Shown here piece after piece: positions 9,206 to 23,238 of a DNA stretch of 24,000 nt. This DNA is from Thermocrinis minervae. Its GTDB lineage: Bacteria > Aquificota > Aquificia > Aquificales > Aquificaceae. The translations under genes and the position numbers were made by a program. The stretch lies in NCBI RefSeq assembly GCF_900142435.1, contig NZ_LT670846.1:204486-228485 (forward strand), given 5' to 3'. The number at the start of each line of letters is the position of its first letter. Positions within the stretch are counted from its first letter, which is position 1. Below the pieces are notes generated by a model that was not told the DNA's origin, made no database searches, and saw only the letters and a list, made by a program, of their open reading frames with translations.

Positions 9206-11656
<2,451 letters not shown>

Positions 11657-12458: not shown

Positions 12459-13127
12459 ATGGGTAAGTTGTACGTTATAGCCACTCCTATAGGTAACTTG
12501 GGTGATATTACCTACAGAGCTATTGAAATCTTAAAAAAAGTAAACTTTATAGCATGCGAGGATACAAGAAGGACTATGATACTTTTGAACCACTATGGGA
12601 TCAAAGACAAAAAGCTTCTCTCCTACTACGAGCCTAAAGAAAGCCTGCAGGTGCCAAAGATTCTAAAGCTCCTTGAAAAGGAAGACGTAGCCCTTGTGTC
12701 TGACGCGGGCATGCCTTCCATATCTGATCCTGGCTACAAGCTCATAAAACAGTGTATACAGAAGAATATACCCGTTGAGGTCATACCCGGGCCAAGCGCC
12801 GTGACTACAGCACTAGTCGGCTCTGGACTACCCACAGACAGGTTCCTGTTTGTAGGATTCTTACCCAAGAAGGGTCTTGAAGGCTACCTTGAAGAGTTAA
12901 AAACATGCACGGATACAACCATAATAGCCTTTGAATCTCCCAACAGAATCCTCAAGACTCTTGAGGTCATGAAAAAAGTGTTTCCACCTCAAACGGAAAC
13001 GTGCGTAGCCAGAGAGCTTACAAAGATCCACGAGGAATATATAAGGGGATCACTAGAGGATGTATACAATCAGTTAAAAGAAAGGGGAGAGATCAAGGGA
13101 GAGATTGTCCTCCTCTGGAGACTGTAA
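12459..13127 (+). CDS. rsmI: 16S rRNA (cytidine1402-2'-O)-methyltransferase
   Basis: 222 aa with LYVIATPIGNLGDITYRAIEIL, ACEDTRRT and SDAGMPSISDPG. Confidence 0.9.
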   Translation: MGKLYVIATPIGNLGDITYRAIEILKKVNFIACEDTRRTMILLNHYGIKDKKLLSYYEPKESLQVPKILKLLEKEDVALVSDAGMPSISDPGYKLIKQCIQKNIPVEVIPGPSAVTTALVGSGLPTDRFLFVGFLPKKGLEGYLEELKTCTDTTIIAFESPNRILKTLEVMKKVFPPQTETCVARELTKIHEEYIRGSLEDVYNQLKERGEIKGEIVLLWRL

Positions 13128-13140
13128 AATATACCAAGTT

Positions 13141-16100
13141 ATGATACCAAGCTACTTCTTAAGACTGTGTCCTAACTGCGGTGGCGATATAAGCTCTGAA
13201 AGGTTGTATGCTGGTCTTCCGTGTGAGAAGTGCATGCCAGAGATAAGGCAGGACGTATGTTCTTACGAAGACCTCAAGGGGTTTATGGAAAAGATATGCA
13301 AGATGGAGGAGGAACTAAGCGAGTGGGAAGCCTTCTTCCAAAAGAGGATCGGCTCTAAACCTTGGAGCCTCCAACTTGCATGGGCAAAGAGGGTACTTCT
13401 GGGCAGATCCTTTGCTCTGCTCGCACCAACGGGCGTAGGAAAAACCTCCTTCGGCACATCCATGGCCGTCTTCTTAGCCAAGAAGGGTAAAAGATCTTAC
13501 ATAATAGTGCCTACCAAATTACTCCTGAAGCAGATCCATAACAAACTTCTCAGCTTAGGACTGGAGGAAGAAGAACTTTTGTACTTCGGTGATGAGACCG
13601 AGAAAGAAAAGGAGAAGAAAAGACAGCTTCTACAAGAGGGAAGGTTTAAGGTCCTTTTAACTACTTCCATGTTCCTCTATAGGAATTACCAAGCTATACC
13701 CAGAGGCTTTTCCTTTGTCTTTGTGGACGACGTAGATTCCTTCTTAAAAACAGCAAAGAATATAGACAAAGCCTTATACCTCCTAGGTTTTGACGAGGAG
13801 GACATTCAAAAAGCCTTAGAGCTTATAAAGGAAAAATCAAGCCACAACAGGGATTACGAGAAGATAAAGTCCCTATCCGAGGAAGTAAAGAAGTTATCTC
13901 TGAAGGCAAAGGGTGTTCTTGTGGTGTCTTCTGCCACTTCCAACCCAAGGTCAAACAGGGTAAAGCTCTTTAGAGAACTTTTAGGCTTTGAAGTAGGAAC
14001 ACCTACCTTCTACCTTAGAAATGTAGTAGACGCTTACGTACATGAAAGGCCTACCATTGAGACTCTAGTAAACTGGATTAGGAAGCTAGGCAAAGGGGGC
14101 TTGGTGTTTGTTTCCTCCGACATGGGCAAAGAACAAGTAGAAAAACTGAAGGAAGCTTTAAGTCACCATGGTATTAACTCCCTAACGTACGAAGAGCTGA
14201 CAGAAGAGAATCTAAAGCTTTACGAAGAGGGTAAGGTAGAGGTACTCATAGGCATAGCCTCCTACAGAAACCCGCTAGCCCGTGGCTTCGATATGCCCCA
14301 TGTAGTCAGGTATGCCATCTTTTACGGAGTTCCCAAGATGAGCATATCCCTAAAGCTAGAGGAAAACCTCTCACACCTCCTTTGGGCTTTAACCTCCATA
14401 AGGTCGCTAATAGTAAAGCAGCTTCCCCATTATGGGCCAACGCTAGAAAGATGGATAGAAAGACTAAGAAGGTACCAGTACTTGTCAGAGGAATTCCTCG
14501 AAGAAAAACAGGATCTAAAAGAAAAGGTTGATAACTTGAAGCTTGAAATATCCAAATTCCTGAACTCTGAAGATGTTATAGCCATACTGGAGAGCAGCAA
14601 TGAAGTAACCTTAAGAAGATCGGAAGAAGGATACTATCTTGTGGTTTCGGACGTTACAGGCTATCTCCAGGCAAGCGGTAGAACATCAAGGATGTACGCC
14701 GGTGGTATAAGCAAAGGTCTTTCTCTTGTATTAGTCGATGATGTAAGAGCTCTAAACCACCTGCAAAAAAGGGTAAGATGGTTCAACGAAGATATAAAGC
14801 TTACACCCATAGAAGAAATAGACATAGGGAAAATAGTAGAGGAGATAGACAGAGATAGGGAAAAGATAAAGAATATATTGGCTGGTAAGGAAAAGCCTCA
14901 GTCTAAAGACATTCTAAAACCCATCCTCATAGTCGTGGAGTCACCCAACAAAGCTAGAACTATAGCCAACTTCTTCGGTAAGCCTGTAAGAAGAAGGGTA
15001 GGAGATCACGAACTTCTCGAAACCTCTGTAGAAGACAGATACATAATGATAACCGCATCCTTGGGACACATAACAGACCTAAACAAAGAAAGAGACTTTC
15101 ACGGTGTTTATGTAAGCGAGGACAGCATTGTACCCTACTACGAAGTTATAGAGGGAAAGGAAGGTATAGTAGAGAGTCTCAGGCTTATGGCTATGGAATG
15201 TTCTGAGGTGCTTGTAGCCACAGACCCGGACACAGAGGGTGAGAAGATAGGCTGGGATATAAGGCTTATCCTCAGACCTTATGTAAAAAACATAAAACGT
15301 ATGGAGTTCCACGAAGTTACCAAAAAGGCTATCTTAAAGGGGATAAAAGAACCAAGGGACTTTAACGAAAACCTAGTAAAAGCTCAGATAGTAAGAAGGA
15401 TAGCTGACAGATGGGTAGGTTTTGAGTTCTCTCAAGAGCTTTGGAGAGCCTTTGGCAAAAACTGGCTTTCTGCAGGAAGAGTTCAGACGCCTGTGCTTGG
15501 TTGGATAATAAAGAGAGAGCAAGAATACCGCCAAAAGATATACAAAGTAATAATAAACCTGGACCAGGATGATAAAAGGCTAAGGATTGAATTCACCTTT
15601 GACAACAAGCAGGAAGCCAAAGAGTTCTTTGATAACTTAGACAGCATTAGAATAGAAAAAATAGAGGAAGCTGAAGAGTACATTCACCCACCGCCACCTT
15701 ACAGAACGGACACACTTTTAAAGGACGCAAGCGACAAGTTCAAATTCTCACTTCAAAAGACCATGGACCTTGCTCAAACCCTCTTTGAACTCGGCTTTAT
15801 AACTTACCACCGGACAGACTCGGTCAGAGTTTCGGACTATGGCATAGCTATAGCCAGGGAGTTCATAGAAGAAAACTTTGGCAAAGAATACTTCCATCCT
15901 AGAGTTTGGGGAGAAGGTGGAGCCCACGAATGTATAAGGCCCACAAAGAACATAGAACCAGAAGAGCTAAGATCTTTAGTACTCAGCGGGCAGGTAGAAG
16001 GTCTCAATAAAGATCATCTAGCTATCTACACCCTTGTGTTTAAACGGTTTATGGCAAGCCAGATGAAGCCAGCTAAGGTAAGAGTAATAAAAACTCTAAT

Positions 16101-16587
16101 AAAAGCTTTAGACAAAGAGCTGACTGTAAGTCTAAGAACTCATATACTTGAAGAAGGCTTTAACAATATACTTCCCATAGAACTCAACCCATCCTACGAG
16201 GATGTCACCCTGAGTACCGAAGGAAGAAAATACTTAAAAGCATCACCGAGGGCATATCTGTACACCTACGGCGAGCTAGTTATGGAGATGAAAGAAAAGG
16301 GTATAGGTAGACCTTCCACCTATGCCACGATAGTAGAAAAGCTGATAGAAAGGGGGTACGTCATAGAGAAAAAGGGCTTCCTTATCCCCACAAGGCTTGG
16401 GAAGGAGATATACCAATACCTGAGCTCAAAAGACCAGATAAAGGGATTCGTCTCCGAGGAGTTTACAAAAGAGTTAGAAAAGATGATGGACATGGTGGAG
16501 GATGGAAAAGAAAACTACATAAGCATACTAAAAAAGCTATACAGGGATATAATAATCTTGGAAAAAGAGTTGGAGGTAGGAAGATGA
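13141..16587 (+). CDS. rgy: Reverse gyrase (helicase-like domain fused to type IA topoisomerase)
   Basis: N-terminal zinc finger CPNCGG...CEKC, Walker A APTGVGKT, DDVD box, Toprim VVESPNKA and DPDTEGE, and catalytic-Tyr motif ITYHRTDS. The ORF track starts at TTG 13105, inside rsmI; the ATG at 13141 (MIPSYFLRLCPNCGG) is the likelier start. Confidence 0.97.
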   Translation: MIPSYFLRLCPNCGGDISSERLYAGLPCEKCMPEIRQDVCSYEDLKGFMEKICKMEEELSEWEAFFQKRIGSKPWSLQLAWAKRVLLGRSFALLAPTGVGKTSFGTSMAVFLAKKGKRSYIIVPTKLLLKQIHNKLLSLGLEEEELLYFGDETEKEKEKKRQLLQEGRFKVLLTTSMFLYRNYQAIPRGFSFVFVDDVDSFLKTAKNIDKALYLLGFDEEDIQKALELIKEKSSHNRDYEKIKSLSEEVKKLSLKAKGVLVVSSATSNPRSNRVKLFRELLGFEVGTPTFYLRNVVDAYVHERPTIETLVNWIRKLGKGGLVFVSSDMGKEQVEKLKEALSHHGINSLTYEELTEENLKLYEEGKVEVLIGIASYRNPLARGFDMPHVVRYAIFYGVPKMSISLKLEENLSHLLWALTSIRSLIVKQLPHYGPTLERWIERLRRYQYLSEEFLEEKQDLKEKVDNLKLEISKFLNSEDVIAILESSNEVTLRRSEEGYYLVVSDVTGYLQASGRTSRMYAGGISKGLSLVLVDDVRALNHLQKRVRWFNEDIKLTPIEEIDIGKIVEEIDRDREKIKNILAGKEKPQSKDILKPILIVVESPNKARTIANFFGKPVRRRVGDHELLETSVEDRYIMITASLGHITDLNKERDFHGVYVSEDSIVPYYEVIEGKEGIVESLRLMAMECSEVLVATDPDTEGEKIGWDIRLILRPYVKNIKRMEFHEVTKKAILKGIKEPRDFNENLVKAQIVRRIADRWVGFEFSQELWRAFGKNWLSAGRVQTPVLGWIIKREQEYRQKIYKVIINLDQDDKRLRIEFTFDNKQEAKEFFDNLDSIRIEKIEEAEEYIHPPPPYRTDTLLKDASDKFKFSLQKTMDLAQTLFELGFITYHRTDSVRVSDYGIAIAREFIEENFGKEYFHPRVWGEGGAHECIRPTKNIEPEELRSLVLSGQVEGLNKDHLAIYTLVFKRFMASQMKPAKVRVIKTLIKALDKELTVSLRTHILEEGFNNILPIELNPSYEDVTLSTEGRKYLKASPRAYLYTYGELVMEMKEKGIGRPSTYATIVEKLIERGYVIEKKGFLIPTRLGKEIYQYLSSKDQIKGFVSEEFTKELEKMMDMVEDGKENYISILKKLYRDIIILEKELEVGR

Positions 16588-20626: not shown

Positions 20627-21076
20627 TCAGACGTTTGTATCGATCAAAAATAGAGGTTGCCCATACTCTACAGTTTCTCCATTCTCTACCAGTATCTTAA
20701 CTACCCTCCCCGCTACGTCGCTCTCTATCTCGTTCATCACCTTTAGGGCTTCTATTATACACAGCACCTGTCCTGGAGAAACTATGTCACCCACTTCTAC
20801 AAAAGGTGGAGCGCCAGGAGATGGTGATCTATAAAAGGTACCCACCAAAGGACTTCTTATAACATGCAGGTTTTTCTCCTCTGTGGGAACAGAAGGAACC
20901 ATCACCTCCAACTGCTTATGTGTTTCCGGTTTAGCAGGCATACTAAACGCCTGAGGTTCTTCAACCTTATAGGTTTCTATTGTTATCTCAAAACCTTCCG
21001 CCTTTAGGGATAACAGCCTTATGTTGCTGTTCTTTACCTCCCTTATCAGCTCCTTTATAAGCTCCTTATCCATCAC
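20627..21076 (-). CDS. accB: Acetyl-CoA carboxylase biotin carboxyl carrier protein
   Basis: 149 aa. The C-terminal biotinyl domain has EALKVMNEI (an EAMKM-type biotinyl-lysine motif) and a Pro/Ala-rich linker. Confidence 0.9.
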   Translation of the reverse strand: MMDKELIKELIREVKNSNIRLLSLKAEGFEITIETYKVEEPQAFSMPAKPETHKQLEVMVPSVPTEEKNLHVIRSPLVGTFYRSPSPGAPPFVEVGDIVSPGQVLCIIEALKVMNEIESDVAGRVVKILVENGETVEYGQPLFLIDTNV

Positions 21077-21642
21077 TTTACCCTTTCCACATAGCTACCA
21101 GTCCTTGTGTCCACACGTACTATATCTCCCTCGTTCACGAAGAAGGGTACCTGTATAACTGCACCTGTTTCAAGCTTAGCAGGTTTACTACCGCCTGCTG
21201 CTGTATCACCTTTAAAAGCAGGTTCTGTTTCTACCACCTTAAGATCTACATGTTTAGGAAGCTCTATACCCACAGGTTGGCCTTTGTAGAGGAACACTAC
21301 AACCGTCATCCCTTCCTTCAGAAACTTGGTCTCTTCCTTTATGTTTTCATAAGGTACAGCTATCATATCGTAGGTGGTTTGGCTTATAAAGTAGTAGTTG
21401 TCACCGTCGTTGTATGAATACTCTGCAAACACCTGTTCAAAGTCTGCGAGTTCTATGGAGTCAGAGGATTTGTAGGTAAGTTCTATGGTGTTTCCCGTCT
21501 GCATGTTTTTGGCCTTTATCCTTACAAAGGCCTGCCCCTTACCCGGCTTAACGTGTTCGTAGTCTAAGACTCTGTACGGTTGCCCGTTATGTTCAATAAA
21601 CATATCTCTTTGAATGCTGTTTATGTCGATTTTCACACCCAT
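21073..21642 (-). CDS. efp: Translation elongation factor P
   Basis: 189 aa with HVKPGKGQAFVRIKAKN (the loop carrying the modified Lys) and a three-domain length. ATGA-type 4-nt overlap with accB. Confidence 0.95.
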   Translation of the reverse strand: MGVKIDINSIQRDMFIEHNGQPYRVLDYEHVKPGKGQAFVRIKAKNMQTGNTIELTYKSSDSIELADFEQVFAEYSYNDGDNYYFISQTTYDMIAVPYENIKEETKFLKEGMTVVVFLYKGQPVGIELPKHVDLKVVETEPAFKGDTAAGGSKPAKLETGAVIQVPFFVNEGDIVRVDTRTGSYVERVK

Positions 21643-21763
21643 GTTTTTATTTTACCATGCATCCCCTATCTTCTTTCTCTTACTTACCTTAATTAATACT
21701 TATAGTGTTTTAGAAGAAGATGATGATAGGCCTTGAGTCCTGTAAACTCAACTTTTTAACAGA

Positions 21764-21831
21764 TCCTTGAAAATCAATCGTTTGGTAATTTGAATTCCAC
21801 ACTCCATATCTAAAGTCTTTGATTCTCAAGG
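21764..21831. repeat. Inverted repeat, unit A: CCTTGAAAATCAA (21765-21777) / TTGATTCTCAAGG (21819-21831), 41-nt spacer enclosing TTCCACA
   Basis: Read directly; 12 of 13 arm positions are complementary. Confidence 0.8.
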
Positions 21832-22024
21832 CTTTTCTGAAATAAAAATTGTACAGTAATTTCCTAGAGTTATGAAACATACTGGAAGTTTTTCACATCT
21901 TGTTGTGTAACTCCTATAAATACGTGAAATTTTTAAATGTACTTTCCTAATGTTATAGTGCAGAATGTGGAAAACTCATATGATCCTTGTGTATCAAAGC
22001 TTAGACCCTGTGAAAATCGTATGG

Positions 22025-22092
22025 TCCTAGAAAATCAACGCTTTGGCGATTTTATTTTCACATCCTGTATCCGAAGCTCTTGATTTTCTAAG
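22025..22092. repeat. Inverted repeat, unit B: CCTAGAAAATCAA (22026-22038) / TTGATTTTCTAAG (22080-22092), 41-nt spacer enclosing TTTTCACA
   Basis: Read directly; 12 of 13 arm positions are complementary. It is a paralogous copy of unit A, about 260 bp downstream. Confidence 0.8.
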
Positions 22093-22170
22093 TTTTTATG
22101 AAGTGAAAATTGTTCAACAAATTCCGAAACTTATAAAACATTCACAGGTTTAGGGTGTTTTCACATTTGA

Positions 22171-22215
22171 GTATGTGGAAAGTGTGAAAAGTATGTGGAA
22201 AAAGTATGTTTATAA
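22171..22215 (+). repeat. Head-to-tail array of four 9-13-bp box units: GTATGTGGAAA | GTGTGAAAA | GTATGTGGAAAAA | GTATGTTTATAA
   Basis: Read directly. Further copies are GTATGTGGAAA at 22244-22254 and GTATGTGAAAA at 22409-22419. Confidence 0.8.
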
Positions 22216-22358
22216 GTTACCGATATTACGATATTTTCTACGAGTATGTGGAAATTGTTCAAGTTATTGAGAGTAAAGTTTTATACGTTTTTACATTATG
22301 TTAACATGGTGTATTTTTAGTGCCTTATTTACAGACATTATAAAATGAGGCGTGAGAA

Positions 22359-22376
22359 TTATGATATATATCATAA
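22359..22376. repeat. Perfect 18-bp AT-rich palindrome TTATGATATATATCATAA
   Basis: Read directly; the reverse complement of the first 9 nt equals the last 9 nt. Confidence 0.9.
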
Positions 22377-22476
22377 ATTGAACCCGTTGCTATTAAGATT
22401 ACAGATAAGTATGTGAAAAAGTTAGAAGATTATGTTAACATGTCGAAGCTATACTTACAGCCTCTGCTATGTCTTT

Positions 22477-23238
22477 TTAGGAACTTAGCTTTATCAATTC
22501 AGCTCCGAGCCCATTCTTGATAAACTCTTTGACGAAGGGTACGCTGGAGTAAAGAATCTCCTCTTTAGTACCTATCTGTACTACTCTTCCCGACTGCAGA
22601 ACCATTATCCTGTCAGATATGGAAAAGGCGCTTACAAGGTCGTGAGTAACCACTATGGAGGTTATTCCCGTTTTTTCTCTTAAGGAGAGAATAAGCTGGT
22701 CTATGAGCCTGCTCGTTATTGGATCAAGGCCGCTTGTCGGTTCGTCGTATATTATAAGTCTTGGATCTGTGGCTATGGCTCTTGCTATTCCTACCCTCTT
22801 CCTCATCCCTCCAGACAGCTCCGAAGGGTACAGGTCAAGTACCTCTTCTCCTAAACCTACAAGCTTTAGCTTCTCAATGGCGAGGTTCCTCAGTTCATCT
22901 TGGTTCCTGTCTGTCTTTTCAAGGTAATAGAAAACTACGTTCTCCCATACTTTTAAGCTGTCGAAGAGAGCAGCACCCTGAAAGACATAGCCTATCTGCT
23001 TTCTTAGTTCATCCAGCTCCACTTTTTTGAGCGAAAGAAGGTCTTTCCCCAGCACCTCTACCTTTCCAGAGGTGGGTTGCCACAATCCTACTATACATTT
23101 GGTTATGGAGGTCTTACCGCTTCCACTACCGCCTACTATGGTGAATATTTCACCTTCTTTCACCTCGAAGGATATATCTTGAAGTATTATCCTCCCGTTT
23201 ATGACCTTGGTTAAGTTCTCTACTTTTACCGCGTACAT
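22477..23238 (-). CDS. ABC transporter ATP-binding protein (MlaF/Ttg2A-like)
   Basis: 253 aa with Walker A GGSGSGKT, Q-loop FQGAALFDSL, signature LSGGMRKRV and Walker B LIIYDEPTSGLD. Confidence 0.85.
   Translation of the reverse strand: MYAVKVENLTKVINGRIILQDISFEVKEGEIFTIVGGSGSGKTSITKCIVGLWQPTSGKVEVLGKDLLSLKKVELDELRKQIGYVFQGAALFDSLKVWENVVFYYLEKTDRNQDELRNLAIEKLKLVGLGEEVLDLYPSELSGGMRKRVGIARAIATDPRLIIYDEPTSGLDPITSRLIDQLILSLREKTGITSIVVTHDLVSAFSISDRIMVLQSGRVVQIGTKEEILYSSVPFVKEFIKNGLGAELIKLSS

Follow-up and report, generated by a model that had tools for sequence, protein, structure and literature searches.

What is the role of an 834-bp intergenic spacer that carries two diverged copies of one palindromic unit? 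The question is raised by a 24,000-nt stretch of Thermocrinis minervae DNA (contig NZ_LT670846.1, positions 204,486 to 228,485 of the forward strand; hereafter the window), part of the chromosome of a hyperthermophile in the family Aquificaceae with a growth optimum of about 75 °C. The spacer separates efp (21073-21642) from a gene for an mlaF-like ABC ATPase (22477-23238), both on the minus strand. It is the only gap of at least 300 bp free of open reading frames (ORFs) in the window, with a GC content of 31% against 43.5% in the remainder. The two units, A and B, each hold a pair of inverted arms with a motif resembling a DnaA box between them, and more such motifs are clustered around the units. 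We consider the spacer to be probably the replication origin (oriC) of T. minervae, and it is the best origin candidate within the approximately 35 kb of this genome that were examined. A composite reading, in which the spacer is oriC or the main DnaA-box cluster, the units are a duplicated origin module and the arms are sites of an accessory protein, is put forward more tentatively, at slightly below an even chance.

The first-pass annotation had described a diverged internal duplication of about 140 bp, judged by eye, and had proposed a comparison with shuffled sequences. The duplication is real: the ungapped core (21764-21880 against 22025-22141) shows 72% identity over 117 nt at an offset of 261 bp, and with a 7-nt gap the similarity extends to a common right end, TTTTCACAT. 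Local alignment of 21730-21910 with 21985-22175 reaches a score of 79, far above the 18.7 ± 2.6 (maximum 38) obtained from 1000 dinucleotide shuffles (z = 23). Outside the two units the similarity is not significant (z = 0 to 0.6), and the 261-bp period is not detected by Tandem Repeats Finder (TRF). A covariance model built on A and B matches only these two units in 486 kb of sequence, composed of the window, 11 kb around the T. minervae dnaA gene and about 60 loci from Aquificaceae relatives (462 kb). The 33 mismatches of the core comprise 22 transitions and 11 transversions, and are spread over the codon phases as 12/9/12, while stops interrupt every frame of the units. Six-frame peptides of the spacer show no similarity to relatives in tblastn searches. 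A coding or pseudogene origin of the units was rejected on account of the stops, the lack of codon-phase bias and the lack of tblastn similarity.

In both units the 13-nt inverted arms are separated by exactly 41 nt and pair at 12 of 13 positions, and the swap at arm position 4 (T:A in A, A:T in B) is present as described. Searching the 24 kb for CCTWGAAAATCAA with at most one mismatch returns four sites, which are the four arms themselves. The equality of the two 41-nt spacers carries little extra information, because the whole 117-nt core is free of indels. One box-like element does lie within each inverted repeat, and its placement is at the dyad centre: box and dyad centres coincide at 21798.0 in unit A and lie at 22058.5 and 22059.0, respectively, in unit B. 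The centres of the paired arms are 54 bp apart. Weaker third copies of the arm upstream of each unit, which had also been claimed, are weak. The sites at 21739-21751 and 21985-21997 belong to a three-mismatch class found at chance level (24 observed, 19.5 expected in the window), and the copy placed at 22005-22018 was not recovered. Among the extra copies, GATCCTTGTGTATCAA alone is a plausible degenerate arm; it begins 41 nt upstream of the arm block of unit B (start to start). A separate sequence at 21731-21752, CCTTGAGTCCTGTAAACTCAA, starts like the reverse complement of the right arm of unit A (CCTTGAG) and ends in ACTCAA. It holds the 6-bp palindrome TTGAGT/ACTCAA, overlaps a predicted minus-strand promoter for efp and may be a degenerate arm copy with an insertion.

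DnaA-box-like motifs are over-represented in the spacer. The motif TTTYCACA/TGTGRAAA occurs 10 times, against the 0.16 that dinucleotide-shuffled versions of the spacer would give, and for the relaxed DnaA-box consensus TTWTNCACA the count is four against 0.17 in shuffles of the same type. Across the window, 11 of the 15 box-like matches fall within the approximately 800 bp of 21630-22412. Among the other loci compared, both those of relatives and unrelated metagenome matches, none holds four or more such motifs per 600 bp. An extended 12-mer, AGTATGTGGAAA, is present in three perfect and two one-mismatch copies, all in one orientation, at 21962, 22170, 22190, 22243 and 22408. The boxes inside the units face the opposite way to the AGTATGTGGAAA boxes, which gives two facing groups. 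The coordinates of these elements are collected in the table.

Features of the efp-mlaF spacer and its duplicated units (positions in the window)
Feature	Position	Strand	Basis or remark
Intergenic spacer, candidate oriC/DnaA-box cluster	21643..22476		834 bp, 31% GC; ORF map
Unit A	21762..21903	+	repeat detection, gapped alignment; covariance model 167 bits
Unit A left arm CCTTGAAAATCAA	21765..21777	+	read from sequence
Unit A inner helix TTTGG / CTAAA	21781-21785 / 21810-21814		extends the dyad
Unit A central box TTCCACA	21795..21801	+	at dyad centre
Unit A right arm TTGATTCTCAAGG	21819..21831	-	12/13 complementary to left arm
Unit A terminal box TTTTCACA	21890..21897	+	9-mer TTTTTCACA at 21889 fits TTWTNCACA
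Box AGAATGTGGAAAA (TTTTCCACA on minus strand), between units	21962..21974	-	repeat detection, motif scan
Possible degenerate left-type arm GATCCTTGTGTATCAA	21982..21997	+	81% over 16 nt; 3 mismatches to the 13-mer
Unit B	22023..22171	+	repeat detection, gapped alignment; covariance model 180 bits
Unit B left arm CCTAGAAAATCAA	22026..22038	+	read from sequence
Unit B inner helix GCTTTGG / CCGAAGC	22040-22046 / 22071-22077		extends the dyad
Unit B central box TTTTCACA	22055..22062	+	at dyad centre
Unit B right arm TTGATTTTCTAAG	22080..22092	-	12/13 complementary to left arm
Unit B terminal box TTTTCACA	22158..22165	+	motif scan
Box array: AGTATGTGGAAA at 22170, 22190, 22243; TGTGAAAA at 22183	22170..22255	-	repeat detection, motif scan
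Box AGTATGTGAAAAA (TTTTTCACA on minus strand)	22408..22420	-	repeat detection, motif scan

Units A and B would, on the origin reading, be paralogous copies of one origin module, produced long ago when a segment was duplicated locally in tandem, at a period of 261 bp. Two DnaA-box-like sites of the same orientation (TTYCACA) are present in each module, one at the dyad centre and the other approximately 95-100 bp downstream, and DnaA may bind the weak central box and the better downstream box of each. Together with the oppositely oriented AGTATGTGGAAA array to the right, this arrangement would let DnaA assemble on two facing sets of sites. An accessory protein, either dimeric or DNA-bending, could then bind the two arms as inverted sites and so frame the central DnaA box. 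The arm-to-arm distance of 54 bp corresponds to about five helical turns, which would set both arms on the same face of the DNA, and their role would be analogous to that of the IHF/HU-bound R1-R5M interspace of Escherichia coli oriC. A symmetric protein site was one of three options offered by the first-pass annotation, and it fits best among them; the DnaA-box-like cluster around it had not been recognised, and it alters how the box-like elements are to be read.

The candidate accessory sites show some resemblance to IHF sites. The left arm with the bases that follow it matches the IHF consensus WATCAANNNNTTR in full in both units (AATCAATCGTTTG at 21772-21784 in A, AATCAACGCTTTG at 22033-22045 in B), and the right arms fail the consensus at the final R. 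No other match occurs in the 24 kb, and the two compare with 0.16 expected (p = 0.017), although both are paralogous and count as one event. IHF is reported only from Proteobacteria, Nitrospirae and Nitrospinae, whereas HU is universal (PMC10325909). An Aquificaceae genome therefore probably has only HU, which is without sequence specificity, and we did not classify the arms as IHF sites, a point that counts against the reading. It is also conceivable, if doubtful, that the dyad-box-dyad arrangement forms a distinct origin element of hyperthermophilic Aquificaceae, in which DnaA loading would be controlled by a licensing or sequestration switch, with a symmetric factor or a transient cruciform framing the DnaA box at the exact dyad centre. 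In that case the origin would owe its pair of switches to the duplication.

Selection for dyad symmetry had been proposed from the pairing retained in the two copies, and here the evidence is suggestive only. A comparison of A with B shows differences at 4 of 26 arm positions (15%) and at 17 of 41 positions of the 41-nt spacers (41%), a difference that is significant (Fisher p = 0.03) and suggestive of selection on the dyad itself. The probability that both copies keep at least 12 of 13 pairs is approximately 0.003 at the drift rate of the rest of the unit, and goes down to 0.0002 at the spacer rate. The 49-nt 3' tail, at 12 differences in 49 positions (24%), is not significantly different from the arms, which tells against the proposed reading, since the arms are then perhaps no special element. 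Plain sequence conservation of the arms explains the retained pairing equally well. The sole evidence for complementarity as such is one compensatory pair, with a rough estimate of p ~0.08. A second T. minervae sample (run SRR12999146) holds a copy of the region with 99.3% identity; its 5 single-nucleotide polymorphisms in 734 bp all lie outside the arms and boxes, a weak observation as approximately 0.35 would be expected in the arms.

The same figures bear on an explanation by neutral persistence, whereby AT-rich DNA with a palindrome was tandemly duplicated and the dyads have lasted through short time or diffuse constraint, the arms being functionless. Such a relic would agree with an arm divergence not significantly below that of the tail, with the lone compensatory pair and with the 2:1 excess of transitions, which is typical of unselected drift; the indel-free core also deprives the equal spacers of weight. 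We regard it as unlikely, since the arms kept 12 of 13 pairs twice despite 41% divergence in the spacer, a box occupies the exact dyad centre in both copies, and 834 bp without function would be unusual in a 1.37-Mb genome with tiny spacers. A regulatory explanation takes the dyads as paired operators, with the regulator acting on the promoter of the efp-accB operon or on promoters within the spacer; a second regulatory module would have arisen through the duplication. The promoter of the efp operon must lie in the spacer, and a sigma-70-like sequence on the minus strand (TTGAGT-17-TATCAT, 21751..21723) is found just downstream of unit A, with a second (TTCATA-17-TACAAT, 21876..21848) in the conserved tail of unit A and its equivalent (TTTATA-17-AACAAT) in unit B. 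Promoter-like sites, however, are at chance level (4 found, 4.6 expected), and more than 380 bp separate unit B from efp. The gap before efp is just 10-40 bp or so in about 50 relatives, such that no region of this kind is needed. Operators would also leave the 10 DnaA-box-like motifs unexplained, and this explanation appears improbable to us.

Two further explanations follow the other options of the first-pass annotation, a hairpin or cruciform and a small mobile element. The fold energies given here are for RNA parameters; DNA-parameter folding above 37 °C gave non-physical energies and was discarded. The 81-nt hairpins reach -16 to -21 kcal/mol at 37 °C (z = -1.7 to -3.7), but only 0 to -3.2 kcal/mol at 75 °C and about 0 at 85 °C, compared to -11.6 and -6.9 kcal/mol for a tRNA of the window. 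With a GC content of 31-32% in the units and 23-38% in the arms, against 67% in the tRNA, a stable hairpin or cruciform is unlikely. For a structured RNA, each unit would encode a small RNA, a 5' leader or a terminator-like hairpin, composed of the 13-bp stem and inner helix followed by a U-rich run on the plus strand. Besides the fold energies at 37 °C, this idea draws on the minus-strand 13-bp stems, which are unbroken with G·U allowed and in which all three variable pairs still pair, and on the plus-strand runs CTTTTCT (A) and TTTTTAT (B) after the stems. Structured RNAs of hyperthermophiles are generally GC-rich, which counts against it, as does the near-zero fold energy of the low-GC units at 75-85 °C beside the stable tRNA. 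The imperfect arm pair of each unit is G·U on the minus strand while the wobbles of the inner helix are on the plus strand; arms and inner helix prefer opposite strands, and neither strand is favoured. No Rfam family matches at the gathering threshold, chance-level matches appearing only at permissive thresholds, a terminator scan found none, and the well-conserved tail lies outside any such hairpin. We consider a structured RNA very unlikely. Least credible of all is an insertion of the miniature inverted-repeat transposable element (MITE) or repetitive extragenic palindromic (REP) type, in which the 67-bp palindromic core with its 13-bp terminal inverted repeats would have been inserted twice. 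The inverted termini around a short core do look superficially MITE-like, and the copies are only 261 bp apart. The arms, however, do not bound the unit: homology extends beyond them, by approximately 75 nt on the right and 2-3 nt on the left. There is no target-site duplication (flanks CAGAT/CTTTT and ATGGT/TTTTT), and beyond the two adjacent copies no other was found in the 486 kb. Scanning for the arm pattern GAAAATCAAN{39,43}TTGATTYTCWARG returned 52 metagenome matches and one viral match; all are unrelated, lacking both boxes and similarity in the flanks. Nothing matched in plasmid and phage collections, and an iteron-pair pattern gave 56 matches in viral contigs by construction only.

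The reading of the spacer as oriC is further informed by the location of dnaA, which was found by homologue searches with the Aquifex DnaA sequence (PDB). The dnaA neighbourhoods of T. minervae, Hydrogenobacter thermophilus, Pampinifervens florentissimum and Aquifex pyrophilus hold no box cluster and no long spacer; therefore, the origin would lie away from dnaA in these four Aquificaceae. An aldo-keto reductase gene is directly upstream of dnaA in T. minervae, Pampinifervens and A. pyrophilus (L138, L140 and L141; the H. thermophilus dnaA locus is L139). The DNA-reading motif DHTT is kept in T. minervae DnaA (K-DHTT-AIYA, aligned to R-DHTT-VLHA of E. coli), with Y at the position of E. coli H439. 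As for indicator genes, dnaA is not in this region, and rsmG/gidB and gyrB are 10-16 kb from the spacer.

Several observations weigh against an origin at this site. The comparison of box clusters within T. minervae covers approximately 35 kb, which bears on the uniqueness of the spacer in the genome. No GC-skew switch is seen at the spacer within 24 kb, where the skew tracks the gene strand, and no parS site is present in the window. The genes on both sides are on the minus strand, which places the right-hand ones head-on to a rightward fork. We recognised no discrete unwinding element, 13-mer array or canonical DnaA-trio run in the spacer, in which the AT content is fairly even at 60-80% with no sharp minimum. 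The efp loci of 55 Aquificaceae genomes have an upstream gap of approximately 10-40 bp, no mlaF nearby and no similarity to the spacer, and mlaF of H. thermophilus TK-6 stands in a different gene context with no spacer alongside. No counterpart of the spacer is present in the accessible relatives.

Some short elements in and near the spacer are recorded here in their own right. On the minus strand the covariance model gives a weaker match at 21960-22097 (26 bits, E = 0.04), which takes in reverse unit B and, to its left, the sequence as far as the TTTTCCACAT box (21962-21974). Outward-pointing boxes thus stand on either side of unit B, approximately 90-100 bp from the dyad centre. Between two of the AGTATGTGGAAA boxes, 22221-22236 is a tandem 8-nt repeat, CGATATTA CGATATTT. 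A perfect 14-nt direct repeat, ATTATGTTAACATG, occurs at 22295-22308 and 22429-22442, 134 bp apart, each copy with a 10-bp palindrome, ATGTTAACAT. The two copies bracket the most continuously AT-rich part of the spacer and resemble the XerD arm of dif (TTATGTTAA). A dif site was rejected, as TTATGTTAA is present twice and the CATAA-N6-TTATG core is missing. Between the two ATGTTAACAT palindromes lies a perfect 14-bp AT-rich palindrome, ATGATATATATCAT (22361-22374), which could be part of an unwinding element. Sites of the CRP type (TGTGA-N6-TCACA) are absent. Just upstream of efp, the trinucleotide-periodic run GAAGAAGATGATGAT (21713-21727) lies beside a small GC cluster (AGGCC) and an AT-rich stretch. 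The run is reminiscent of a DnaA-trio array, but in the wrong polarity.

Compared to known systems, the spacer resembles bacterial oriC in its dense DnaA-box-like 8-9-mers within AT-rich DNA, arranged in two oppositely oriented groups. The oriC of the hyperthermophile Thermotoga maritima shares the extended 12-mer repeats/DnaA boxes, and E. coli oriC (R1-IHF/HU site-R5M) shares box-flanking sites that suit a bending protein. In E. coli one such site lies between two boxes, whereas here the candidate accessory sites form an inverted pair, 54 bp apart, around one box. Unlike these origins, the candidate spacer is not beside dnaA and displays no recognised unwinding element or DnaA-trio array. 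Regulators whose sites overlap or flank DnaA boxes in origins include CtrA in Caulobacter, Spo0A in Bacillus, HP1021 in Helicobacter, and MtrA and AdpA in actinobacteria; like their sites, the arms are short specific sequences around DnaA boxes and could gate the access of DnaA. To our knowledge no such regulator or motif has been described for Aquificaceae, and the arms are not known to match any of these consensus sites. In the 'A site' of R6K and pBR322 (ABC-primosome), the DnaA box is part of a stable hairpin stem formed by single-stranded DNA. Both arrangements link a DnaA box with an inverted repeat, but here the box occupies the 41-nt spacer between the arms, and the AT-rich stem lacks stability at growth temperature. 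MITE and REP repeats have short inverted termini and a small core in common with the units, which differ in being confined to one locus, in not being bounded by the arms and in lacking target-site duplications.

Internal repeats in a predicted origin are nothing new in kind, and the finding is a modest one, a probable origin substructure. The dyad-box-dyad geometry, on the other hand, is not known to us from any described origin, and comes here from two paralogous copies in one genome. Replication origins of Aquificaceae are, as far as we know, available from computational prediction only. The DnaA of Aquifex aeolicus is the main structural model of the bacterial initiator, and is without a characterised cognate origin. 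A delimited candidate origin would offer testable substrates for Aquificaceae DnaA, with an extended box consensus (approximately TTTTYCACAT), box groups that face one another and a module present in duplicate. Should a specific protein bind the arms, a hyperthermophile would have yielded a new accessory factor of origins; if the arms are a mere relic, the locus would still show clearly how an origin region expands through internal duplication, here where synteny breaks. Apart from a schematic mention of the predicted A. aeolicus oriC, which is likewise described as long (PMC10325909), the literature searches yielded no account of an origin in Aquificaceae.

Compared with loci L003-L058 and L084, the spacer lies at a synteny breakpoint on both sides, and the gene upstream of efp varies among Aquificaceae, with several different neighbours. 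The EF-P protein is at most 90% identical to those of the 55 Aquificaceae genomes, and the closest homologue of the mlaF-like ATPase is just 79% identical. In H. thermophilus TK-6, mlaF adjoins genes for GidB, SCO1 and GCD14, homologues of which are found at 4.7-6.6 kb in the window. The 462 kb of relatives' loci contain three ORF-free gaps of at least 300 bp, none of which is rich in boxes. The largest of them (L035, 2370-3057; 688 bp, 38% GC) is without box motifs and resembles a decayed gene. The proteins encoded in the window include, by the ORF map, reverse gyrase (13105-16587), GyrB, RsmG/GidB, EF-P, AccB, ThyX and other housekeeping proteins. The reverse gyrase is full-length (1160 aa), its gene is less than 2 kb from gyrB (9293-11656) on the same strand, and the tRNA gene (9206-9281, 67% GC) lies directly upstream of gyrB.

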